Assembly (NCBI RefSeq): GCF_008933605.1 | Contig: NZ_WBUS01000001.1 | Span: forward strand, 18,939 to 82,938 | Length of the DNA: 64,000 bases | DNA from: Albidovulum sp. | Lineage (GTDB): Bacteria; Pseudomonadota; Alphaproteobacteria; Rhodobacterales; Rhodobacteraceae | Direction of reading: 5' to 3' | Shown: positions 2,365-24,759 of the stretch, piece after piece | Numbering within the stretch: position 1 is the first letter of the stretch | How the letters are laid out: every line of letters begins with the position of its first letter | Program-made: the position numbers and the translations under genes | Notes under the pieces: generated by a model | Told to the model about the DNA's origin: nothing | The model's database searches: none | What the model saw: the letters and a program-made list of their open reading frames with translations, nothing else

Positions 2365-3354
2365 TCAGCCGTGGCCGCGGAGGTTCTTCGCGGAGGCCTT
2401 GATCGCCTCGTATTGGCCCGACGGGCGGAAGCGCCACAGATAGTCGGGCAGAACCGCCTCGGCCGGCGTTGGCGTGATCCCGAGATCGGCAAATCCCTTC
2501 GCTCCCGGTGCCACGACGTTGTCGCGGCGGAGCATCTTCACCTGGTCCCCGGTCAGCATCCGGTTGGCGAGGAGCCGCCCGGTCGCAAGGGAACCGAAGT
2601 CGAGCAGAGCGGCCATGATCCGCGCGATCCAGAACGGCAGATTAATCACGAGCCGACGCCGCCCGATGATGCGGAGCATCCTGCTCATCAAGCCTCGGAA
2701 CGTCTCGACGTCCGGACCGCCGAGCTCGTAAGTCCCTGCGGGCACTTCACCGTTCACGGCCTTGACCGCAGCGCGTGCGACGTCGTCCACATAGACCGGC
2801 TGGAATTTCGTGCCTGCGCCGACGACGGGGAGGATCGGACCCAGCCGCGTCATGCCGGCGAAGCGGTTGAAGAACTGGTCCTCGGGCCCGAACATCACTG
2901 ACGGGCGCAGGATCACGGAAGACCGGAACGCGGCCTTCACCGCCGCCGCGCCCGCAGCCTTTGTGCGGGCATAGGCGCTGTCCGACTCCGGATCGGCGCC
3001 GATGGCCGAAACATGGACGAGACGCGCAACGCCGCTCTCGGCCGCGATCCGGGCGATCCGCGCGGCGCCTTCCGCCTGCACGGCCCCGAAATTGTTGCGG
3101 CCGCCCTTGTCGAAGGTGCCGACGCAGTTGACCACCGCATCGGCACCGGCCATGGCGGCCCGGACGGAGGCGTCGTCGCGGATGTTGCAGAGCACCGGCT
3201 CGACCTGGCCCACCGCACCGTAGGGGCGCACGAACAGCGCCTCGTTCGGCCGCCGCACGGCGACACGGATGCGCCAACCCTCCTTGGCGAGCCGCCGGGC
3301 AATGTAACGGCCGAGGAATCCCGAACCGCCGTAGATCGTGACGAGCTTGGACAT
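2365..3354 (-). CDS. NAD(P)-binding complex I NDUFA9-like / NAD-dependent epimerase family protein
   Basis: [22 protein letters not shown] is a Rossmann GxxGxxG motif. Start chosen at ATG 3352-3354; the track ORF extends to 3435 with a non-homologous Arg-rich leader. Confidence 0.8.
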
Positions 3355-3450
3355 GGGCAGGCGCCTCCGCAGATTTCCGGCCCTGATTAGCGCCCCGCGG
3401 CACGGCGAACAAGGCGCGAATGCGCGCGGGGGCAATCCGGCGGCGCCCCG

Positions 3451-3477
3451 TTGACAGGCCCCGGCAGCCGCTATACA
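3451..3477 (+). promoter_or_regulatory. sigma70-like promoter candidate for tRNA-Leu
   Basis: TTGACA at 3451-3456 and TATACA at 3472-3477 (15-nt spacer, or 16-17 nt if the -10 hexamer is shifted). It lies about 20 nt upstream of the tRNA 5' end. Confidence 0.45.
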
Positions 3478-3495
3478 TCGCCCGTCACGACACCT

Positions 3496-3580
3496 GCCCA
3501 GGTGGCGGAATTGGTAGACGCGCTGGTTTCAGGTACCAGTGCCGCAAGGCGTGGAGGTTCGAGTCCTCTTCTGGGCACCA
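3496..3580 (+). tRNA. tRNA-Leu, anticodon CAG, class II with long variable arm, encoded CCA
   Basis: Folded by hand. Acceptor stem is GCCCAGG with tctgggc. Anticodon stem is ctggt/accag, loop ttCAGgt, anticodon at 3530-3532. T arm is ggagg-ttcgagt-cctct. Ends in A-CCA at 3577-3580. Confidence 0.9.
3565..3580 (+). repeat. attL core: direct repeat formed by the tRNA-Leu 3' end
   Basis: cctctTctgggcacca here versus cctctCctgggcacca at 9263-9278, a 15/16 match. Confidence 0.8.
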
Positions 3581-3590
3581 TTACTACCAG

Positions 3591-3633
3591 AAAAGTCCTG
3601 CAATCCTAATGGGTTGCAGGACTTTTGGTTTTT
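3591..3633 (+). terminator. rho-independent terminator for tRNA-Leu, supplied by the element
   Basis: A 13-bp perfect stem, aaaagtcctgcaa (3591-3603) with ttgcaggactttt (3614-3626), followed by ggttttt. Confidence 0.8.
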
Positions 3634-3635
3634 CG

Positions 3636-3680
3636 ATCCACCTTTCCATCCACCCTTGGGCGCTCGTGAAGGTGGATAGA
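3636..3680. repeat. three copies of ATCCACC(C/T)TT (two direct, one inverted) next to attL
   Basis: ATCCACCTTT at 3636-3645 and ATCCACCCTT at 3648-3657, 12 nt start to start. Inverted AAGGTGGAT at 3669-3677. The same motif pair recurs at 9115-9136. Confidence 0.7.
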
Positions 3681-3913
3681 GGCGTTCCTCCCGCCCCGAG
3701 CTACGAGTCCTAGCCCCGGATGTATGGACGGCGGCTTTCGCCCAGCATCGCCTTAGACCGCGTGCAGTGACTCACCCAGGCAGAACTTGTCAGAAGCCTT
3801 GCCTTGGAACATGCGCCCGTGTCCCATCGTAGAGAGGAGGTAGGCCTGAAGAGGGAACGAAGTCTAACGCCCCAAAGCCTAGTGGCATTCGCGCCCTCCA
3901 AGTCTGGCGCGCA

Positions 3914-5128
3914 GTGAAAATCGACTTGCCTTGTCCACTTCGCCGCTGCACTTCTGGGTTGAGGTGTTCGCGGGAGGTTGCTTTGTTGGTTCTTCTGGCA
4001 GTTGTTTCAATGGCCGCTCTGCTTTGGGCTGGGGTCTCGTTGCTTGGGGTTCTTTATCCCTTCAAGCCATTCCACACGCGCAAACGAGCATTGCGGTCCT
4101 TGGGTGGTTCGCTTGCGATATCTATCGCATCTTTGCTTTTTGTCGGTTTCAACGCCGAGTCAAAGCCCAAAGCGGCAAGTGAAGTTGCTGCAACACGGTC
4201 GGCTTCCTCTGCCGAAGTCGCAGTTGAAGAGGATAGGACTGCCGACGCGCCCGTAGAACCCACCGCTTCCCCAGAGCTTGACCAAGCCTCCACCGAGGCG
4301 GAGACATCTGTGCAAATGTCCGCGAATGCTTGCAGTGGCGGCACAGCCTCGCCGGGCGATGTCGTCGCAGTGTCCGGGGAATATGCGCTATATGTAGAGC
4401 CAGACGAAAGCTCCGCTCGGATCAAGAATGAAAAAGCTTCAAAGATACTTGGCGAGGCGCACTATCACCAGATCGACAAGTCAACGACTGTTCGCCGCCT
4501 TTGCGTGAAGGGGGATTGGACAGAGGTTCAGATCGTCACCCCCGAATGGCTGACCTTTGTAAAAGGCTGGGTGCCAAATGCGGCCCTAAGGGGGATAGAG
4601 CACTCGGGAGACGGCGCGCGGGTCTTTGTCGAGGACCACTTTTATTGGGATGACAGCACTTCAAAGTTTAAGGCGGAGATTGTGGCGGTCGTTAACAAGA
4701 TTGCCCGTGAGAACGCAAACTGCCCCAACCCCGACCCCGGCACAGTTTCCAAATCCGCCGACCGAAGTAAGCCAAATGATCCGGTATTTTTCGTCATGTG
4801 CGGGGAAGGGACCGACGTGTTCAATGTGTGGTTCAAGCCGGGCGACGCTTCGGGGGACACAACATTTGAAGCAGTCCTTCCCCTTTCACAAACCGCTGCT
4901 GTCGATGCCTGCGAAGTAGTGGCGAAAAGCGCGGCAACGCACCCATCCACCGTTGATTTTTCGCGCTTCGTGGACCTGTCATACTTCGCGCACAAGAACG
5001 GAAATGTGCGGGTCACTTCGACATTTACCGCAAAGAACGCGCTGAACCTCGAACTGAAGTATGACATCTACTGCTTCTTCGAGGGCAACAAGTTGGTCGA
5101 GCATTCCATCGCCGAAGCGTTGCAGTAG
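3914..5128 (+). CDS. hypothetical membrane-anchored protein with an SH3b-like segment (element cargo)
   Basis: About 404 aa. Two hydrophobic helices (VALLVLLAVVSMAALLWAGVSLLGVLYPF and LGGSLAISIASLLFVGF), then an Ala/Ser/Glu-rich linker. The segment GDVVAVSGEYALYVEPDESS...GDWTEVQIV...KGWVPNAAL resembles a bacterial SH3 domain. The Cys-containing C-terminal domain is unrecognised. The start is uncertain: GTG 3914, or a TTG about 5 nt after GGGAGG near 3972-3977. This gene has the lowest GC sampled in the window. Confidence 0.6.
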   Translation: MKIDLPCPLRRCTSGLRCSREVALLVLLAVVSMAALLWAGVSLLGVLYPFKPFHTRKRALRSLGGSLAISIASLLFVGFNAESKPKAASEVAATRSASSAEVAVEEDRTADAPVEPTASPELDQASTEAETSVQMSANACSGGTASPGDVVAVSGEYALYVEPDESSARIKNEKASKILGEAHYHQIDKSTTVRRLCVKGDWTEVQIVTPEWLTFVKGWVPNAALRGIEHSGDGARVFVEDHFYWDDSTSKFKAEIVAVVNKIARENANCPNPDPGTVSKSADRSKPNDPVFFVMCGEGTDVFNVWFKPGDASGDTTFEAVLPLSQTAAVDACEVVAKSAATHPSTVDFSRFVDLSYFAHKNGNVRVTSTFTAKNALNLELKYDIYCFFEGNKLVEHSIAEALQ

Positions 5129-5201
5129 GACGCAGGTGCCACACGGTTTTGGCTTGGCGACTTGATCCAGCGCCGCTTGCGTATGCAGCGCAGTGCGCTT
5201 T

Positions 5202-6521
5202 TTAGGAGCAGCTAGGGCCTTGGTGCAAGCGAAACCCTTGCAACAGGCGGGCTATCACCGCGCCTTCGGTCGTGGTTGGCGGATCGAAGACATGGGCGTG
5301 CAGGTCGGACAGGAAAGCGTTCTGCCTGCCGTCGAGCCAGAAGCCTGTCAATTCGGCACAGCGGTCAAGGTGGGCGTCCACGTCCCCCGCCGCGCTGAAC
5401 CCGTTGCGAAAGGTCCGCAACGCCTGCCAGATGGCCAAGGCGAAGGTCAGGTCGCCCAGCGTGTCGTCGTCTTCCAGATCGGCCAGCCGCTTTTCCAGCT
5501 TGGACAGGGCAGCTTCGGCAACGCTGATTTCAGGGCTGTCAGGGTCAAAGGCGTAGGACAGAAAGTCCAGAGGTTCCGTTCCCGGCCCCGCATAAACGGC
5601 GGGGCACAGGTTCAGCGGGCCTGCGGGGCAATCGCGCTGGAAATACGCGACCAAGGATTCAATCACCGCTTGCCTTGTGGTAGGGTCTGCGGCGGCAACG
5701 GCGATGTTGTCGGTGCAGATCAGAACCATCGCACCCTCGGGCATGGACATGTCGTTCAACAGCCATGCGAGGATGAGATTGGAAGCTGGCGAGCCTTGCA
5801 GCAGGCCCCGTGGCCCGCTTTCACTGTGAGAGTGCATAGGAATACCAGAGAGGCGTCGATTGGCCGTCGTCCCTTTCTGGGGTTCCCATTCTTCAAACGT
5901 CATGTTGCGCGTATCGAGCGCGCGGCGGATCACCTCCTTTGGCAGTGGCAGTTGATAAAGGCTGTCGGGGTTGATGCTCTGGAAGCAGTCCACGATGTCG
6001 AGCTTCGCAAGATAGGTCTGCCCCGCGTTCTGGGCTTCCTTGAGACGGCGGGCGGCTTCATCGCGGCCCCGACCCGTCACCCCGTAAATATGGTTGTTCG
6101 GCACAAACGCCGCCTTGAGCGCCCCGGCAATCACGTAGTGCACGGCTTTCAAGTCGGGCGGCAGCGCACAGATCGGGCGATAGCCGCCGCTTTTCTTAGA
6201 GTGCTTGTGCCACCGGATGGGCCGGTAGCCCTCGCGCCAAGGGTTTACAGTGGCGGCAAGGGCTTCGGCGGTCTGTCGGTCCGGTTCACCGCGCAATGCC
6301 GCCAGCGCCCCGCAGAAGCGCGCGGCAGCGGCGGAAAGATACTGTCTGATGTAAGGCTGCACCCGCTCCCCGCGCGCCTGCTTTTCACGCAGCCCGTTGG
6401 CCAACTTGGTGCGCGCGGCATGGGCAAGGCCCACCTCGCGCTTCCATTGCTTGGCAGAGGTGGATTTTGCACCCCGTTGCACGGGGCGGAGATTCGGGGC
6501 GGGACGGGGCGTGCCAGTCAT
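5202..6521 (-). CDS. reverse-transcriptase-like protein with a non-canonical active-site motif (CTDN in place of YxDD)
   Basis: 439 aa. Motifs 1/2: KKSGGYRPICALPPDLKAVHYVIAGAL. Motif 3/A: YLAKLDIVDCFQSINPDSL. Motif 4/B: GLLQGSPASNLILAWLLNDM. Motif 5/C position: MVLICTDNIAVAA. Motifs 6/7: PLNLCP...PLDFLSYAF. A helical C-terminal region of about 110 aa follows. I checked the translation against the DNA at 5706-5717. Confidence 0.8.
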   Translation of the reverse strand: MTGTPRPAPNLRPVQRGAKSTSAKQWKREVGLAHAARTKLANGLREKQARGERVQPYIRQYLSAAAARFCGALAALRGEPDRQTAEALAATVNPWREGYRPIRWHKHSKKSGGYRPICALPPDLKAVHYVIAGALKAAFVPNNHIYGVTGRGRDEAARRLKEAQNAGQTYLAKLDIVDCFQSINPDSLYQLPLPKEVIRRALDTRNMTFEEWEPQKGTTANRRLSGIPMHSHSESGPRGLLQGSPASNLILAWLLNDMSMPEGAMVLICTDNIAVAAADPTTRQAVIESLVAYFQRDCPAGPLNLCPAVYAGPGTEPLDFLSYAFDPDSPEISVAEAALSKLEKRLADLEDDDTLGDLTFALAIWQALRTFRNGFSAAGDVDAHLDRCAELTGFWLDGRQNAFLSDLHAHVFDPPTTTEGAVIARLLQGFRLHQGPSCS

Positions 6522-6820
6522 CAGAAAGAACCCCCTGCGACCTTCTCCACCTTCGACAGCAGGACGTAGCGGGCATGGGTGCCGGGATAGGCCCCGCCGT
6601 GCTTCTCCCGCTCGGTCTTGATGATCAGGCCACGGCAGCGCAGCTTGAAAATGTTGCCTGCCCAGCGCGGCGCGGGGTCATCGTAGAACGTGCAACCCGT
6701 TGCACCGCCCCGGATCAGGGCATCCAGCGTGTCACGTTCCCGACCGTGGCGCAGGGAAATAATGAAAGACTGTCCGTCTTGATCGGACACCCGATATTCT
6801 AAGCGCCCCTGATCACGCAT
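6521..6820 (-). CDS. small hypothetical protein, possibly winged-helix DNA-binding, coupled to the RT-like gene
   Basis: 99 aa. Its stop overlaps the RT start by 1 nt (tgatg at 6519-6523), and its start overlaps the alpA-like stop by 8 nt. The segment DALIRGGATGCTFYDDPAPRWAGNIFKLRCRGLIIKTEREKHGGAYPGTHARYVL recalls small winged-helix proteins I remember from alphaproteobacterial mobile elements. That is memory only, not verified. Confidence 0.5.
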   Translation of the reverse strand: MRDQGRLEYRVSDQDGQSFIISLRHGRERDTLDALIRGGATGCTFYDDPAPRWAGNIFKLRCRGLIIKTEREKHGGAYPGTHARYVLLSKVEKVAGGSF

Positions 6821-7073
6821 GGCGGGCCTTCAGGTCGGCAAGGTGGGCTTGAAGCATGGAACCAACCCAGTAGGTGCGCCGCCCGATCCGAAGCGGGCTG
6901 GGCATCAAACCCCCCTTGACCCAGCGCCAGATCGTGGAGTGGCTGACGCCGTAGAGGAAGCAGACCTCCTTGGTGCTGATCAGCTTTTCAACCGGGTATT
7001 TTCCGCCTTCGTTCGGCAGCTTCTGGACTGCCAAGATGGCAGGCTGCGTTTCAGGGATGATAGAAAGTGACAT
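6813..7073 (-). CDS. alpA: AlpA-family (prophage CP4-57-type) HTH regulator / excisionase-like protein
   Basis: LISTKEVCFLYGVSHSTIWRWVKGGLMPSPLRIGRRTYWVGSMLQAHL matches the AlpA/MerR-like HTH pattern. Start chosen at ATG 7071-7073 (86 aa). The track start is a GTG at 7121. Confidence 0.8.
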   Translation of the reverse strand: MSLSIIPETQPAILAVQKLPNEGGKYPVEKLISTKEVCFLYGVSHSTIWRWVKGGLMPSPLRIGRRTYWVGSMLQAHLADLKARHA

Positions 7074-7142
7074 TTCCTGCGACCTCTTGATTCGCGTTGA
7101 GATGTCATTTGATGCCGCCACATGCTGCGGCCAGCATTGGCG

Positions 7143-7901
7143 CTATTCCTTTAGGAATGGGTGCAATGCTTCGCCGTCGGCCCCGCTTTGCACCTCGTTG
7201 CACAGACGGTGAAACCATTGGCTGCGCTCGGCGCGGGCTTTCTGCATCGCCGCGACGAAACTGCGCTTGTGCCATACATTCATCGCGGTGTTCTGTTCGA
7301 GCGTTACGCCCCGTTCATCGACGGCAGGAATGCCCGCCTGTTTGAAAACCTTCTCAATGAGCGCGGATGCGCTCCACCTTAGGTCTTGCCTTGCTGGGGC
7401 GTCCGCATCCGTCGGAATGCCGAAGGTCGGGTTCAGGCCGAACTCGTCAACCAGTTCGTGCGTGAGATGGAAAAGCATGAAATTGCGTTTCCAACTCTTG
7501 GTGGCTGCCTTGGATTTTCGCTTGGGCCGCTTAACCGTTCCATCAAGCACGCCCGATACAAGGTTCCGAAATCCTCGGGGCACCGAGCCTTCTAGGCGAA
7601 CGGATGAGGCGCAGATGTCCATGACCAAATCGAAAACATCCGTGTCGTGCGCCGCCGCAGAGGCCATTTCGGGAACGAATTGCGGCACAAGCCTGTAACG
7701 ACGAACTTCAGACCCATCTTCTGTGGTCACATGGTCCAAAGTAAACGCAACTTCGTAGTAAACCTCCGCCACAGGCCCCCACCAGTCTGGAAAATACTGC
7801 GACATGAACAGCCGTGCGCGGTCCCAGACCAATTCCTCCGCCCTCGGGTCGGGTCCGGGTTTGAAAAACCCCTCTGTCTCTCTCTGCTTGATCTTTGCCA
7901 T
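7143..7901 (-). CDS. hypothetical protein (ORFan by inspection) translationally coupled to the integrase
   Basis: 252 aa from MAKIKQRETEGFF. Its ATG (7899-7901) overlaps the integrase stop by 1 nt (tgatg). No motif recognised. It has a basic patch, KRPKRKSKAATKSWKR. Confidence 0.6.
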   Translation of the reverse strand: MAKIKQRETEGFFKPGPDPRAEELVWDRARLFMSQYFPDWWGPVAEVYYEVAFTLDHVTTEDGSEVRRYRLVPQFVPEMASAAAHDTDVFDLVMDICASSVRLEGSVPRGFRNLVSGVLDGTVKRPKRKSKAATKSWKRNFMLFHLTHELVDEFGLNPTFGIPTDADAPARQDLRWSASALIEKVFKQAGIPAVDERGVTLEQNTAMNVWHKRSFVAAMQKARAERSQWFHRLCNEVQSGADGEALHPFLKE

Positions 7902-9103
7902 CACTGCCCGACGACCAGCTTGACGACCTCGCCCGAGGACTTCCCGGTGACGAAATCGGCCCAACGGTTCGTCAGGGCACGGCGCTGTTCCAAGAAGTCG
8001 GTTCGCAGGTAAGCCTTCACGACTGCGCTTCCAATCGAATGGGCGATGATAGTCTCCGCCACCTGATGCGGGGCGTCAGTGCAATCCGCCAGCCAGACAC
8101 GCAGGCTGCTCCGAAAACCGTGCGGCACGGCGTCAAGGCCGCGCGACTTCATCACCTTCCGCATTGTATTGTCGGAAATAACGGCTGATTTCTTCCCCGA
8201 ACTCGGAAAAAGGTAGCCGTTCCGCTCAAATGCTCGGGCCTGTTCGATGACGCGAAGGGCTTCCGGCGAGAGCGGCACGCGAAACTCGCGTGTTGTATCC
8301 AACCTTCCCTTCACCCCGTCTTCTGGAATGGTCCACACATCGCCGCTGATCTGGTCTTCTCTGATGAACCGGATCGGCTCGGACCTCATCCCGGTCAAGA
8401 TCAACAGGCGAAGCGCCAAGTGCGATATGCTTCCATCGTTCAAGCTCTGATAAAAGTCTGGAACCTCTTGCCACGACATGGCGGGGATGTGCTGCGCCTT
8501 GTGACGCCGCTTGCCCAGCAAAGCCTTCGCCTTGTCTGTCGCGTCGAGGTTCACATTCAGGTTCAACGCAGCGGCGTGCTTCAAGCAGATGCCGATGCGG
8601 TCCATCGCCTTGCGGGCTGTCTCCGCCTTCGTGTGCCAGATCGGGGCGAGGGTGTCGCGAATATCCATCTGGTCGATTTCAGAAACTGGCGTTTTACCCA
8701 GCTTCGGCAGCACATGAAGCTCAAGAGGGCTGAACCACCGCCTCGCTTTGCCATCCCGTTTCAGTTCGGCCTTGCGGCTTTCGAATGCATCGCGGGCAAC
8801 ATCCTCGAACAGGTGCAGGTTTCGAACGGCCTCCTTCCTCTGGCGTTCCCGGTCTTTGATCGGGTCAACGTTTTCGCGGCCCTTAGCGTTGGCCTCCTCT
8901 GCCTTCCGCCGCGCGTCCGCCAGTGAGACGCCGGGGTAAGGACCAAGACCCATTTCCCTCCGTCGCCCGTGAATGGTGAATCGCAGAACCCACTGACCGC
9001 CGCCGTCAGGACGCTTCACAAACCACAACCCGCCGCCGTCGCAATACTTGCCGGGCGCTGCCGCCGCGATACCCTTTGCCGTCAGCCTGTTCTTGGTTCG
9101 CAT
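7901..9103 (-). CDS. int: tyrosine-type site-specific integrase (P4-like, DUF4102-type N-terminal arm-binding domain)
   Basis: The N-terminus LTAKGIAAAAPGKYCDGGGLWFVKRPDGGGQWVLRFTIHGRRREMGLGPYPGVSLADARRKA is typical of P4/CP4-57 integrases. C-terminal catalytic-region residues include HGFRSS and IAHSIG...AYLR. Start chosen at ATG 9101-9103; the track uses TTG at 9115. Confidence 0.9.
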   Translation of the reverse strand: MRTKNRLTAKGIAAAAPGKYCDGGGLWFVKRPDGGGQWVLRFTIHGRRREMGLGPYPGVSLADARRKAEEANAKGRENVDPIKDRERQRKEAVRNLHLFEDVARDAFESRKAELKRDGKARRWFSPLELHVLPKLGKTPVSEIDQMDIRDTLAPIWHTKAETARKAMDRIGICLKHAAALNLNVNLDATDKAKALLGKRRHKAQHIPAMSWQEVPDFYQSLNDGSISHLALRLLILTGMRSEPIRFIREDQISGDVWTIPEDGVKGRLDTTREFRVPLSPEALRVIEQARAFERNGYLFPSSGKKSAVISDNTMRKVMKSRGLDAVPHGFRSSLRVWLADCTDAPHQVAETIIAHSIGSAVVKAYLRTDFLEQRRALTNRWADFVTGKSSGEVVKLVVGQ

Positions 9104-9114
9104 ATCGCTTCTCA

Positions 9115-9136
9115 ATCCACCCTTCTATCCACCTTT
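9115..9136. repeat. two direct copies of ATCCACC(C/T)TT in the integrase leader
   Basis: ATCCACCCTT at 9115-9124 and ATCCACCTTT at 9127-9136, 12 nt start to start, the same spacing as the pair at 3636-3657. They lie 12-33 nt upstream of the int ATG. Confidence 0.7.
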
Positions 9137-9137
9137 T

Positions 9138-9166
9138 ACGATACGCTCTTATGAAACCTTTTGAAA
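9138..9166 (-). promoter_or_regulatory. candidate sigma70-type promoter of the int operon
   Basis: On the minus strand, TTTCAA (rc of 9161-9166), a 17-nt spacer, then TATCGT (rc of 9138-9143). The -35 element overlaps one TGAAAC repeat. The match to consensus is weak. Confidence 0.3.
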
Positions 9167-9240
9167 CACAAAAACATCATATGAAACATGAAGATGCTTG
9201 TTTTCTTGGGGACTTGAAACCCTATGAAACCTAATGAAAT
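9151..9240. repeat. iteron-like array of six (A/T)TGAAA(C/T) motifs between the int promoter and attR
   Basis: Copies start at 9151, 9161, 9181, 9214, 9224 and 9234: ATGAAACC, TTGAAACA, ATGAAACA, TTGAAACC, ATGAAACC, ATGAAAT. Start-to-start spacings are 10, 20, 33, 10 and 10 nt. The segment is AT-rich. Confidence 0.75.
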
Positions 9241-9262
9241 TCGGTGCATTTTCGGTGCCCTG

Positions 9263-9278
9263 CCTCTCCTGGGCACCA
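9263..9278 (+). repeat. attR core: direct repeat of the tRNA-Leu 3' end
   Basis: cctctcctgggcacca is a 15/16 match to 3565-3580. Confidence 0.8.
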
Positions 9279-9280
9279 CA

Positions 9281-9321
9281 GGGCCGCCGGCATCCCGAGT
9301 GATGCGGCGGCCCTTGTCGTT
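9281..9321 (+). terminator. probable original (pre-integration) tRNA-Leu terminator hairpin
   Basis: gggccgccggcatc ... gatgcggcggccc forms a 13-bp stem with one bulge, followed by ttgtcgtt. It begins 3 nt after the attR copy of the tRNA end. Confidence 0.45.
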
Positions 9322-9779
9322 ACAGGGTCCGGCCCACAGATGCCTCTGCCGCAACAATCTGGCCGAAAACACCCGCTTCGTTGCCAAAACCCACCGAGGG
9401 ACTAGCCGAAAAAGACAAGTTCCAGAATCGCCGTCCGTTATGGTTCTCTACACGTGTAAGTGGTGGTCATTGTTAAGAATTCTACGTAAAGTATTTCCAG
9501 CGGATAGCATTTGTTTCCGGACTGACCCCCAATCGTCTCGGGTGGGCGATTGGGGGCAAGTCCGCGAAAGTCGCGCGGGCTGGGGGGCCCCGAGACCAGG
9601 AATGTTGAATCAGAGCGTGGTGGCAAGGTGCCGACGGCCGTCCGATGACCCGGGCGGCCGTTGCGCCTTTGCGCCGCCGGTCGTCGCCGTTCCGGCGTCG
9701 GCATTGAGCCCGGGCGGCAATTGGCCTAACTAGCAGGAAACCCGCGCGGGCAGCTGCCCGCCCGCCCCGCAGAGGCCCC

Positions 9780-10394
9780 ATGACGATACATCTTCACCAG
9801 CACGACCTGCCCGAGGGGCTCGATCTCGGCTCCGTTGTCGCAATCGACACGGAGACGATGGGACTCGATCCGCGGCGCGACCGGCTCTGCGTCGTGCAGC
9901 TTTCCGCGGGCGACGGGGATGCGCACCTTGTGCAGATTGCCAGAGGTCAGGCGAAGGCGCCCAACCTGACGCGGATGCTGGCGGACCCGCAGGTCCTGAA
10001 GCTCTTCCACTTCGGCCGCTTCGACATCGCTGCGCTCAGGGCTGCGTTCGGTGTGACCACGGCCCCGGTCTACTGCACCAAGATCGCCTCGAAGATGGTG
10101 CGCACCTTCACCGACCGGCACGGCCTCAAGTACCTCCTGCAGGAACTCCTGGGCGTCGATGTCTCGAAGCAGCAACAGACTTCCGACTGGGGCGCCGAGG
10201 CGTTGACCGAGGCGCAGCTCGACTACGCCGCCTCCGACGTGCTCTACCTTCACCGGCTCAAGGCCGAACTGGACGCCCGGCTGGAGCGCGAGGGACGCAC
10301 GGGCCTCGCGCAGGCCTGCTTCGACTTCCTGCCCGCGCGCGCCGAGCTCGACCTCATGGGGTGGGGCGACACGGCCGACATCTTTACCCATTGA
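9780..10394 (+). CDS. 3'-5' exonuclease, short RNase D-like (DEDD family)
   Basis: 204 aa. VVAIDTETMGLDPRRDRLCVVQL is an ExoI-type DxE motif, and YAASDVLYLHRL is an ExoIII-type motif. Confidence 0.8.
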   Translation: MTIHLHQHDLPEGLDLGSVVAIDTETMGLDPRRDRLCVVQLSAGDGDAHLVQIARGQAKAPNLTRMLADPQVLKLFHFGRFDIAALRAAFGVTTAPVYCTKIASKMVRTFTDRHGLKYLLQELLGVDVSKQQQTSDWGAEALTEAQLDYAASDVLYLHRLKAELDARLEREGRTGLAQACFDFLPARAELDLMGWGDTADIFTH

Positions 10395-11375: not shown

Positions 11376-11984
11376 GTGCGCGACAACATCCACTCGCGGG
11401 TGGTCTTCTGGCTGAAGATCATCCTGCCGCTGGTCGCGCTGGCGCTCCTCTCCACGCTCTTTCTCTTCTCGCGCCGGATCGACACCGAGGCCGCCCTTCC
11501 CTACGCCGAGGTGGATGTGGAGGACCTCGCCCGCAACCAGCGCCTAGCGGCCCCGGAATATGCCGGTGTGACCGAGGACGGCGCCGCCGTGACGGTCCGC
11601 GCCGCCGTGGCGAGGCCGGCGAGCGAGGGAGGTGCCGCAGTCGCCGACACGATCACCGCGCGCTATGAAACGCCGGACGGAATGGTGATCACGCTCTCCG
11701 CCGACGAAGGGTCGCTCGACGATGCTGCCGGGCGGCTGGTCCTTGCCGGCGCCGTGAAGATCGCGACCTCGACGGGCTATCACGTGACCGCGATGCGGCT
11801 TGACAGTGCCCTGGACCAGACAGAGCTTCATTCGGAAGGATCGGTGCGCGTCCTGGCGCCCTACGGAACGATTGACGCCGGACAGTTGGATATCCGCCAT
11901 GAGGATGCCGAAGTCCCGGGCTACGTGATGGTTTTCACCGGCGGCGTGAAGCTGGTATATGAGCCTGCGAAGAAGGACCCGTGA
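11376..11984 (+). CDS. lptC: LPS export system protein LptC
   Basis: 202 aa with an N-terminal membrane anchor ([23 protein letters not shown]). Positioned between kdsD and lptA. GTG start. Confidence 0.75.
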
Positions 11985-23937: not shown

Positions 23938-24759
23938 ATGTTCAGAGTCGAGACACGGAAATCCGGGCTGAACTCGGCGCTTGCGATCCTTGACCTCATC
24001 TTCCATTCGACAGTCCGCGCGATCCGCCGGGGACATCGTCACGCATTGCTTGGGCTTCTCAGCAACGTCCTCCAGACGCTCATCTTCATCGGAGTCTTCT
24101 ACGCGATGATGACGCTCTTGGGGATGCGGTCGGCGGCGATCCGCGGCGATTTCGTCCTCTATCTGATGTCCGGCATCTTCCTCTTCATGACCAACGTGAA
24201 GGCGATGGGCGCGGTCGCCGGGTCCGAGGGCCCGACCTCGGCGATGATGCTCCACGCTCCGATGAACACCGCCATTGCGATGAGTTCGGCGGCGCTCGCG
24301 GCGCTTTACATCCAGGTACTGTCGATCATCGTCGTGCTTGGCGGCTACCACATCGCGGTGACGCCGGTGCACATCCACGATCCGGTGGGCGCCATGGGGA
24401 TGGTGCTTCTGGCCTGGGCCAACGGATTTGCCACCGGGATGGTCGTTCTGGCCGTGAAGCCCTGGTGGCCGGCAGGTGCCGGTGTTGCCCAGACCGTCTA
24501 CAGCCGCGCCAACATGATCGCGTCCGGAAAGATGTTCGTGGCCAACACGCTCAGCTACACGATGTTGAAGGTCTTCGACTGGAACCCCTTGTTCCATATC
24601 ATCGACCAGGCGCGCGGCTTCGCGTTCATCAATTACAACCCGCACAATTCATCGATGATGTACCCGGTCTACGTGACGCTCGTCCTCTTTGCGATCGGGC
24701 TCATCGGCGAATACCACACCCGCAAGCATGCCTCGGTGAGCTGGGGGGCAGGGCGCTAG
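23938..24759 (+). CDS. ABC-2 type polysaccharide export permease (KpsM-like)
   Basis: 273 aa with multiple hydrophobic helices and an ABC-2 permease pattern. It sits next to kdsB and cysQ. Confidence 0.7.
   Translation: MFRVETRKSGLNSALAILDLIFHSTVRAIRRGHRHALLGLLSNVLQTLIFIGVFYAMMTLLGMRSAAIRGDFVLYLMSGIFLFMTNVKAMGAVAGSEGPTSAMMLHAPMNTAIAMSSAALAALYIQVLSIIVVLGGYHIAVTPVHIHDPVGAMGMVLLAWANGFATGMVVLAVKPWWPAGAGVAQTVYSRANMIASGKMFVANTLSYTMLKVFDWNPLFHIIDQARGFAFINYNPHNSSMMYPVYVTLVLFAIGLIGEYHTRKHASVSWGAGR

Follow-up and report, generated by a model that had tools for sequence, protein, structure and literature searches.

A reverse transcriptase of group-II-intron-like type in the integrase-alpA operon of a tRNA-Leu island of Albidovulum sp. 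and the palindrome linked with it

Introduction

What does a reverse transcriptase (RT) do when its gene is built into the core operon of an integrative island? The question is raised by a 5.7-kb island at a tRNA-Leu gene of Albidovulum sp. (Rhodobacteraceae), which we studied within a stretch of 64,000 nucleotides (RefSeq assembly GCF_008933605.1, contig NZ_WBUS01000001.1, positions 18,939 to 82,938 of the forward strand). This whole stretch is called the window, and positions are those of the window unless a relative is named. An earlier note, made from the letters and a list of open reading frames (ORFs), had described five coupled minus-strand genes that begin with an integrase gene and end with an RT-like gene, and had considered an antiphage module with the neighbouring proteins as partners, a polymerase of the element itself, and a decaying gene. 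Here we report that the island belongs to a mobile, intact and selected family, that its RT is an intron-less group-II-intron-like enzyme in the replication slot of the backbone, that the cargo is variable and often defensive, and that a short palindrome is distributed among the RT-bearing islands and a lineage of phages.

Results

An intron-less, group-II-intron-like RT

The RT gene (5202-6521, minus strand) encodes 439 amino acids (aa). The product scored 35.9 bits against Pfam RVT_1 (cut-off 29.6) and its AlphaFold2 (AF2) model is confident (predicted local distance difference test, pLDDT, 92.3), so that the gene called RT-like from the letters is a genuine RT gene. Motif A (D175), the steric gate (F180), motif B (QGSPAS, residues 242-247) and motif C (CTDN, with D271 and N272) are all present, and the C-terminal residues 336-433 form a thumb/X-like helical region. 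An exhaustive HMMER search gave a family of 548 representatives at E ≤ 1e-3, 202 of them at E ≤ 1e-10, mostly 370-450 aa long; a profile search for distant members with genomic context returned just the close clade. D175 and D271 are invariant in all 109 aligned family sequences. The steric-gate position is aromatic in 107 of them (F in 87, Y in 20, with H in the other 2), and QGSPxS of motif B as well as R115 are conserved across the alignment. The second position of motif C is N in 77 and D in 30 of the 109 sequences (family pattern Y/F/C-x-D-N/D), and N272 is invariant among the 40 closest relatives of the window RT.

When the family profile was compared with the PDB, the best match was 6me0_C (1.2e-33), which spans profile positions 11-396 and thus includes the N-terminal extension and the thumb/X region. 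GsI-IIC (6e-24), RT-Cas1 (2.7e-23) and G2L4 (1.5e-18) also matched, and the UG/Abi enzymes Drt3a and UG15 reached about 1e-4. By fold, the top matches of a Foldseek search against the PDB were GsI-IIC and G2L4 (9d4s, E = 6e-11). A true group II intron-encoded protein was considered and ruled out, since there is no ribozyme: an Rfam scan of 3000-10000 showed the tRNA alone, and there is no room for intron domains I-III because the upstream gene's stop and the start of the RT overlap. In addition, the protein scored 13.4 bits against TIGR04416 (group_II_RT_mat), far under the cut-off of 300. Given the group II affinity by profile and fold and the lack of intron RNA, the window RT is an intron-less RT of the group-II-like (G2L) type.

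The earlier note could not assign a named RT class by eye. This stands for the classes of PADLOC and NCBIfam, and it was too cautious in that the enzyme is placeable as G2L. No PADLOC class profile (UG/DRT, retron, Abi) matched the window RT at E = 1e-4, the nearest being UG26 (0.0026) and UG4 (0.0043), with retron profiles at 0.007 or above; the best PADLOC match was a generic RT profile (1.3e-6), and no NCBIfam RT model reached its cut-off. Assignment to a retron, DRT or Abi class was rejected on these results. Distant members of the family match UG4 (9e-21) and UG17 (2e-16), so the family borders class 2, outside its named groups. As the note had observed, there is no intergenic space for an msr/msd-type RNA upstream of the RT. 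Rfam found nothing there, the region between the palindrome copies S2 and S1 (see below) folds at z = -1.13 relative to shuffled sequences, and the upstream regions of six diverse loci, searched for a conserved noncoding RNA (ncRNA), did not align (38% column identity).

Like other G2L RTs, especially G2L5 and also G2L4 (Park et al. 2022), the window RT is free-standing, has no intron RNA and combines RT motifs 1-7 with an N-terminal extension and a thumb/X-like region. With G2L5 it shares the change from DD to DN in motif C. The YIDD hallmark of G2L4 is missing, CTDN standing in its place, and so is the chromosomal repair context of G2L4. The G2L5 reference sequences (Gimesia/Planctomyces maris, Blastopirellula; ZP_01854760.1 and ZP_01851752.1 among them) come from planctomycetes, and some reach about 930 aa, including an N-terminal extension of 500 aa, unlike the window RT. 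The G2L5 class with its DD-to-DN change was described in 2008 by Simon and Zimmerly, who suggested a loss of activity (PMC2602772), and in later trees G2L5 was not a supported group (PMC4244168). Apart from G2L4, the G2L lineage is uncharacterised. The window RT is predicted to be active as a DNA polymerase, because the whole deoxynucleoside triphosphate (dNTP) pocket is conserved and DN and DD interchange within one family.

A recurrent operon on a mobile island

The island lies between the tRNA-Leu(CAG) gene (3496-3580, plus strand; found by ARAGORN, by Rfam and through a direct repeat), whose last 16 nt (3565-3580) form the attL core, and an attR core at 9263-9278 that is identical to the tRNA 3' end at 15 of 16 positions. 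This repetition of the tRNA end defines an island of 5.7 kb at about 3581-9278. Homology with two close relatives, L001 and L027, begins exactly at the attR core, and the G+C content is 55-62% within the island against 65-70% outside.

Five genes run head to tail on the minus strand. The integrase gene int (7901-9103 from an ATG, or 7901-9115 from a TTG) encodes a P4-type tyrosine integrase (Arm-DNA-bind_3, Phage_int_M, Phage_integrase, PRK09692). It is followed by ORF252 (7143-7901), which encodes a 252-aa backbone protein with no family match in the libraries scanned, and by a gene for an AlpA/excisionase-type helix-turn-helix protein of 102 or 86 aa (6813-7121 from a GTG, or 6813-7073 from an ATG; HTH_17 4.9e-7, Phage_AlpA 3.5e-3, phrog_66 excisionase). 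The likely start of this alpA gene is the ATG at 7073, which is preceded by AGGA. A gene for a 99-aa HTH_91 winged-helix protein (6521-6820; Pfam PF22324, 5.7e-29) and the RT gene complete the operon. The order and the overlaps described previously were confirmed from the ORF list and by direct reading of the junctions: int and ORF252 overlap by 1 nt in TGATG at 7899-7903 (CAGTGATGG), alpA and HTH_91 by 8 nt at 6813-6820 (ATGCGTGA), and HTH_91 and RT again by 1 nt in TGATG at 6519-6523 (TTCTGATGACT). The count of five minus-strand ORFs is correct, and to it the island adds a sixth gene on the plus strand, ORF404 (3914-5128).

A scan of one genome per species gave 21 RT loci, to which exact-protein look-ups added further ones. 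In about 19 of the 20 Rhodobacterales-type loci that extend far enough upstream to be informative, the RT gene is downstream of, and co-oriented with, int, a protein gene in the ORF252 position and an AlpA-type gene; the exception is L108, an apparently truncated island. The gene just before the RT is HTH_91 in the clade of the window and a member of an IQWIIQR-motif family or another small ORF elsewhere, and it usually lies 0-10 nt from the RT start or overlaps it. The overlaps of int with the next gene and of the small gene with the RT are also found in L022, L110, L111 and L112. Because both the order and the stop/start coupling recur in independent loci, chance does not account for the arrangement. 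The RT is an integral part of the int-alpA operon, as had been proposed, and the five genes are not a one-off juxtaposition.

Across the loci, identity to the window ranges from 32 to 97% for the integrase and from 31 to 94% for the RT. The two are uncoupled (integrase 66% and RT 86% in L002, 69% and 38% in L010), so the modules recombine. Related islands are found at five tRNAs, namely Leu(CAG), Leu(GAG), Phe, Ser(GCU) and Thr. An island (L001) in a metagenome-assembled genome (MAG) of Tabrizicola matches the window island with 94.9% identity over 4.06 kb (9278 to 5225), and the chromosomal flanks cannot be aligned by megablast, which indicates recent horizontal transfer. Beyond the breakpoint, the window has ORF404 and the Tabrizicola MAG island a type III restriction-modification (RM) system. 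The homology with relatives of 95% identity stops at 5225 (9297 in L001), 23 nt before the RT stop, and the last seven or so RT residues differ (…HQGPSCS in the window, …PKHRNNNC… in the relatives), a cargo swap inside the RT 3' end. In sphingomonads, more distant relatives of the RT are solitary, their neighbours being a resolvase, RM genes and another integrase.

All five genes are under purifying selection. The ratio of nonsynonymous to synonymous substitution rates relative to L001 and L027, respectively, is 0.11 and 0.07 for int, 0.21 and 0.14 for ORF252, 0.31 and 0.38 for alpA, 0.17 in both comparisons for HTH_91, and 0.35 and 0.34 for the RT. With its catalytic residues also invariant, the RT gene is not the decaying gene that had been envisaged as one possibility.

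The RT stands in the replication slot

The place of the RT can be judged from islands that share the backbone. A sister element with a 51%-identical HTH_91 protein carries int, a 60-aa alpA-like gene, HTH_91, a 32-aa gene, a Toprim_3/DUF7146 primase and a DUF3987 helicase. Its two assemblies, L023 (1-8453) and L024 (1-8449), are the same sequence from two sequencing runs, circularly permuted and with terminal overlaps of 30 and 26 nt; they thus represent a closed 8.42-kb circle, showing that the backbone exists in an excised or replicating form. A metagenome scan with the HTH_91 alignment gave 80 loci, and 110 ORFs were tallied downstream of HTH_91 in about 50 of these. Winged-helix proteins of the HTH_36/HTH_Crp_2/MarR_2 type accounted for 11-13 ORFs, DUF3987 for 7, Toprim_3 with DUF7146 for 6 and DUF3631 for 2. 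DnaB_C, DUF1376 and AAA_25 were each found once, and RVT_1 twice, both times in close relatives of the window. In at least 17 further loci HTH_91 comes after an AlpA homologue, and two loci that have no RT encode weak homologues of ORF252.

Thus int, ORF252, alpA and HTH_91 are a generic backbone, and the RT is what distinguishes the lineage. Since relatives carry a primase/helicase or another replication gene downstream of HTH_91, the RT occupies the replication slot, in line with the earlier suggestion that it takes the place of a primase or replicase. As in phage satellites, the window island joins an integrase and an AlpA-type module at a conserved chromosomal site; as to the primase or replicase that satellites have of their own, family-library scans found no primase/helicase domain in the island.

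The proposal that the 99-aa and 252-aa proteins are specific partners of the RT was not supported, since both belong to the general backbone of AlpA islands and also occur in RT-less ones. Nor is the 252-aa protein a strict ORFan: it has relatives at 80-97% identity and weak ones in L007, L057 and L058. Elsewhere the same position is taken by unrelated proteins, of 226-277 aa in most loci and of 490 aa in L003. The single-sequence AF2 model of the ORF252 protein (pLDDT 40) was unusable.

A palindrome linked with the RT

The 14-bp palindrome TGCAAC-NN-GTTGCA, which the earlier note had passed over, occurs three times in the 64 kb of the window when up to two mismatches are allowed, all within 735 bp of operon sequence. 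A repeat finder had also flagged TGCAxCCxGTTGCAC at three window positions. Copy S1 (TGCACCCCGTTGCA, 6468-6481, one mismatch) covers RT codons 14-18. Copy S2 (TGCAACCCGTTGCA, 6691-6704) is perfect; it is contained in the HTH_91 gene, with the RT start 170 nt downstream, and is kept at the same place in L001, L002, L022, L027 and L110. Copy S3 (TGCACCTCGTTGCA, 7189-7202, one mismatch) is located 116 nt upstream of the alpA ATG. The 31 RT loci (390 kb) contained 75 perfect and 34 one-mismatch copies, with at least one perfect copy in 28 of the 31. In the 82 HTH_91 loci without RT (508 kb), no perfect and three one-mismatch copies were found. In loci with ends that could be located, all copies sit on the stretch from int to the tRNA, and the flanks have none. 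The site is TTGCAACGGGTTGCAA, and a variant, TGAACCCGGGTTCA, goes with RTs of the Shimia or Ruegeria clade.

In most loci one copy is found at -46 to +73 of the RT start, and further copies lie 5-35 nt upstream of gene starts. The copy at the RT start encodes an apparently conserved N-terminal peptide, [LV]Q.VA, which is present in 35 of 156 full-length representatives, including distant ones, and falls in the low-confidence tail of the RT model. In L014 this copy is in the 5' untranslated region (UTR), and elsewhere copies of the motif fall in other frames or are intergenic, which identifies it as a nucleic-acid element rather than a peptide motif. In one RT subclade (L005, L006, L007), the palindrome is replaced at equivalent places by four to six copies per locus of TG(A/C)ACC-CG-GGT(T/G)CA. 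The variant of the motif tracks the RT clade and neither the integrase nor the c11 and c27 genes. An extended hairpin at the palindrome was rejected, since the flanking bases show no covariation. As the RNA between S2 and S1 is also not unusually stable, the element is a short symmetric site and not a long stem.

Some copies are arranged in larger repeats. In L012, direct repeats of about 95 nt with two palindromes each (9795-9895 and 11543-11640) flank a cassette of a small two-transmembrane (two-TM) protein and a 367-aa membrane protein, and a similar pair in L109 (13629 and 15305) flanks a 416-aa membrane protein. One possibility is that the palindromes mark the boundaries of modules or points of recombination. 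Three loci have arrays with a spacing of 53-71 nt and non-repeated sequence between the copies, placed about 400-500 nt past the RT stop (L011 4271, 4337 and 4403; L012 9795, 9848 and 9919; L013 2893 and 2949).

The palindrome in phages

An exact 16-mer scan of IMG/VR gave single matches at about the number expected by chance (a rough estimate) and several contigs of 37-96 kb with many copies, such as UViG_3300046512_000168. Perfect sites numbered 17 in 36.9 kb, 10 in 23.5 kb, 9 in 28 kb and 9 in 12.6 kb of these phage contigs. This corresponds to one copy per 1.4-3 kb, and the copies are mostly at or near the 5' ends of genes. The multi-copy contigs are tailed phages, with terminase and portal proteins 42-47% identical to those of Rhizobium phage L338C and to the portal protein of RcF phages of Rhodobacter capsulatus. 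They form a lineage of large alphaproteobacterial siphophages (40-96 kb) of lytic appearance. The contigs encode no relative of the RT.

In the cultured Rhodobacter phage RcTiptonus (MW677527.1, L155), TGCAAC..GTTGCA was not found in the first 50 kb. The same 50 kb contain a sister site, (T)GCAATCGATTGC(A), in 9 perfect copies and 23 copies with at most one mismatch, about half of these 23 lying 4-64 nt upstream of annotated starts. It appears to be an undescribed, putative multi-copy regulatory site. The paper describing RcF-type phages does not mention the motif.

Cargo and other features of the islands

Downstream of the RT, relatives carry RM genes (type I RM, type III RM, or a C5 methylase with a 288-aa partner) and other cargo (GmrSD/Z1/DUF4420, DUF3800, DUF4411/Peptidase_M78). 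Often the RT is directly followed by a small two-TM protein gene, whose start overlaps the RT stop, and then by a gene for an HTH_28 protein. Two-TM proteins of about 75-100 aa were noted in L003 (7319-7570), L004 (1633-1872), L010 (9341-9577), L107 (9367-9597), L108 (9215-9439) and L112 (4429-4686), and a two-TM protein gene stands between alpA and HTH_91 in L002 (7446-7703) and L022 (7754-8008). L022, a metagenomic contig, also encodes a second, unrelated RVT_1 protein of 503 aa (2857-4368), 1.2 kb upstream of the integrase. Four loci from two bacterial orders (L107 10028-10711, L014 9086-9727, L016 9206-9823 and L008 15801-16412) share a conserved protein of 203-227 aa (FFxRDFLHSEI…RSxYRS…IWD), encoded near the RT in varying orientation.

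The variable cargo of the window island is ORF404. Its product begins with a two-helix membrane anchor and ends in a domain without assigned function. The N-terminus resembles distal-end membrane proteins of L003, L012 and L013, and a weak match to phrog_29597 (2.9e-7) was the sole family match. Sequence searches of the PDB with the ORF252, ORF404, HTH_91 and c10 proteins gave no matches, and identification of the c10 protein as a small terminase was unsupported. A terminator scan placed a terminator-like hairpin at 5177-5198, between the convergent ORF404 and RT genes.

The tRNA-proximal arm of the island (3581-3719) is conserved: segment 3495-3719 is 92% identical to the corresponding arm of L001 although the cargo differs. 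It contains a terminator hairpin at 3591-3626 (terminator scan), and a motif scan found ATCCACC in tandem at 3636 and 3648 (plus strand), 12 nt apart, with an inverted copy at 3671 (minus strand). The integrase-proximal arm (9104-9262) is the probable control region of the operon and has a tandem ATCCACC pair at 9115 and 9127, on the int start. GGTGGAT pairs with the same 12-nt spacing are found just upstream of int in L007, L008, L012, L022 and L109. These repeats fit candidate arm-type sites for an integrase with Arm-DNA-bind_3. Between them and the attR core are five same-strand TGAAAC repeats (9152-9230), and related loci have TGAAATTTCA, ATTTCATGG or TGTTTCA repeats with a 10-nt spacing in the same place. 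The TGAAAC repeats may be AlpA/excisionase sites or an operator of the operon. Outside the island, at 24501-24656 on the minus strand, the window matches the Ruegeria cis2 small RNA of Rfam (RF02645) with 53.6 bits, above the gathering score, which is consistent with its Rhodobacterales origin.

Discussion

Both halves of the system are of kinds already known: the RT belongs to the G2L branch, with DN as in G2L5, and the island to the AlpA/CP4-57-like type. CP4-57 of Escherichia coli has the order intA-yfjH-alpA-yfjI(DUF3987)...abpAB, ending in the AbpAB defence genes, and so the same backbone order as the window island. [quoted passage not shown] The window island differs in that the RT replaces the primase/helicase, in that its five genes run in one direction with overlaps, and in that it has no capsid-hijack or packaging genes. 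As to the helper phage that induces, packages and transfers a satellite, the palindrome shared with a phage lineage is just an indirect hint here. The defence RTs (retrons, DRT1-10, AbiA/K/P2) are likewise stand-alone enzymes on mobile elements near RM or defence genes, and DRT10 is coupled to SLATT much as relatives of the window RT are often coupled to a small two-TM protein; in contrast to these RTs, the window RT matches no class profile, has no adjacent ncRNA and shows affinity to group II introns. Neither G2L4 nor G2L5 has been described within an int-alpA operon or with an associated palindrome. The stoperators of cluster A mycobacteriophages are a short site present in tens of copies per genome and enriched just upstream of genes. 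The TGCAAC palindrome is similarly repeated and near genes, but it is perfect, and it is common to phages and islands that share almost no proteins. In the literature searched, we found no description of the combination of such an RT and island, of the replacement of the replication module, of the one-way coupled operon, or of a palindrome linked to an RT and shared with phages.

How might such an element work? The five genes are the conserved backbone of an AlpA/CP4-57-type integrative island that enters tRNA-Leu by means of its P4-type integrase, with the RT in the place of the Toprim primase and DUF3987 helicase, or another replication module, of sister islands. Being translationally coupled to the preceding small gene, the RT would be co-expressed with int and alpA. 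On infection, a factor recognising the palindrome may change the expression of the operon, which would lead to excision by Int and AlpA and to production of the RT. The RT, as a dNTP-using polymerase, would then make DNA that interferes with the phage, and the variable downstream cargo, often an RM system, would add protection. Since the palindrome linked with the RT is also multi-copy in phages of the same bacteria, the RT probably acts in conflict with those phages. That the element as a whole is phage-responsive and satellite-like, with an RT acting against or upon phage by DNA synthesis, is a possibility that we favour tentatively and with somewhat less than even confidence.

Several observations weigh against this proposal. 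The two-TM partner common among relatives is missing from the window island, ORF404 is no recognised defence gene in PADLOC, and the RT family itself is not in PADLOC. No member of the RT family was found in the plasmids, cultured phages or IMG/VR contigs searched, no excised circle was present among the four small RT-bearing contigs (L110-L113), and the phage contigs, in the portions examined, share no island protein except for a weak c11 match. The loci were selected by RT homology, and the constancy of the RT among them is therefore partly by construction. The motif variant tracks the RT clade, which agrees with the RT itself as the recognising protein no less well than with a phage factor. 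Finally, Asn at the second position of motif C inactivates some RTs, as in HIV-1 D186N.

Other roles for the RT have to be considered. An enzyme that stands directly after HTH_91 in the replication slot, in an island with no other recognisable replication gene, could replicate or propagate the island itself, the excised 5.7-kb circle being primed or copied from a transcript or, at the palindromes, from primers of the hairpin or snap-back type. This would suit an RT that stays constant while the downstream cargo varies, with the breakpoint at 5225 inside its 3' end, and palindromes that are spread along the island and also lie near its ends; group II-like RTs have DNA-dependent and snap-back activities, as the title of PDB entry 9d4s and published abstracts indicate. 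We nevertheless consider this role unlikely. Many AlpA islands need no replicon of their own, the sphingomonad RTs stand alone outside any int-alpA operon, and the frequent coupling to a two-TM protein is ill-suited to a replicase. Moreover, it was a primase-type relative that was found as a closed circle, whereas none of the four small RT contigs is circular and IMG/VR yielded no RT relative. We give a small chance to an RT that is catalytically dead through its DD-to-DN change and serves in nucleic-acid binding or regulation only, as Simon and Zimmerly proposed for G2L5. The invariance of N272 in the 40 closest relatives would agree with such a role, and DN was taken as loss of the polymerase in the 2008 survey (PMC2602772). 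However, both of the other catalytic Asp residues are present in all 109 sequences, the steric gate, motif B and R115 are conserved, and DD persists in the same scaffold in 30 of the 109 members; one would not expect the whole dNTP pocket to survive in a dead enzyme. It is very improbable that the RT is a host-beneficial DNA-repair enzyme merely riding on the island, like G2L4 with its microhomology-mediated end joining. The RT is intron-less and group-II-like as G2L4 is, and matches it by profile (1.5e-18) and fold (9d4s, E = 6e-11), but YIDD is missing (PMC4244168), genuine intron RTs are nearer to the family than G2L4 is, and the strict linkage to int-alpA and the phage-type palindrome would be left unexplained.

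The palindrome can also be read differently, as the recognition site of the RT itself. It would then be a relic or analogue of the site in DIVa, at the start of its own ORF, to which a group II intron protein binds, and it would serve autoregulation and the entry of primer or template, and the phages with palindromes would be targets and not inducers. A copy lies near the RT start (-46 to +73), in the 5' UTR in L014 and in coding sequence elsewhere; the sphingomonad loci, despite their different backbone, also have the motif together with the RT; TGMACC-CG-GGTKCA is confined to exactly one RT subclade; and the RT is the sole protein common to all motif-bearing loci. We doubt this reading, since the flanks show neither covariation nor an extended stem, the RNA between S2 and S1 is not unusually structured (z = -1.13), 6 bp of stem and 2 nt of loop make a poor hairpin in RNA, and a perfectly symmetric site of 14-16 bp is typical of a dimeric protein binding double-stranded DNA. 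Furthermore, phages use the motif at many gene starts without encoding the RT. In a broader form, the RT and the palindrome would be a sequence-addressed reverse-transcription system, in which the sites on island and phages are entry points for DNA synthesis, the island dispenses with primase and helicase by replicating or transferring through RT-made DNA, and phages carrying the site can be attacked. This is distinctly improbable in our view; if true, a phage-satellite-like element would have as its core enzyme an RT domesticated from a group II intron.

Time and again the biochemistry of free-standing bacterial RTs has come as a surprise; retrons, DRT2, DRT9, DRT10 and G2L4 are examples. Since 2008 the group-II-like branch with DN in motif C has been without a function, and to it the locus described here adds a reproducible genomic context, a candidate cis-element and candidate partner phages. 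If the RT responds to the palindrome or acts on it, the family would link the domestication of group II introns with the biology of satellites and with the regulatory signals of phages.

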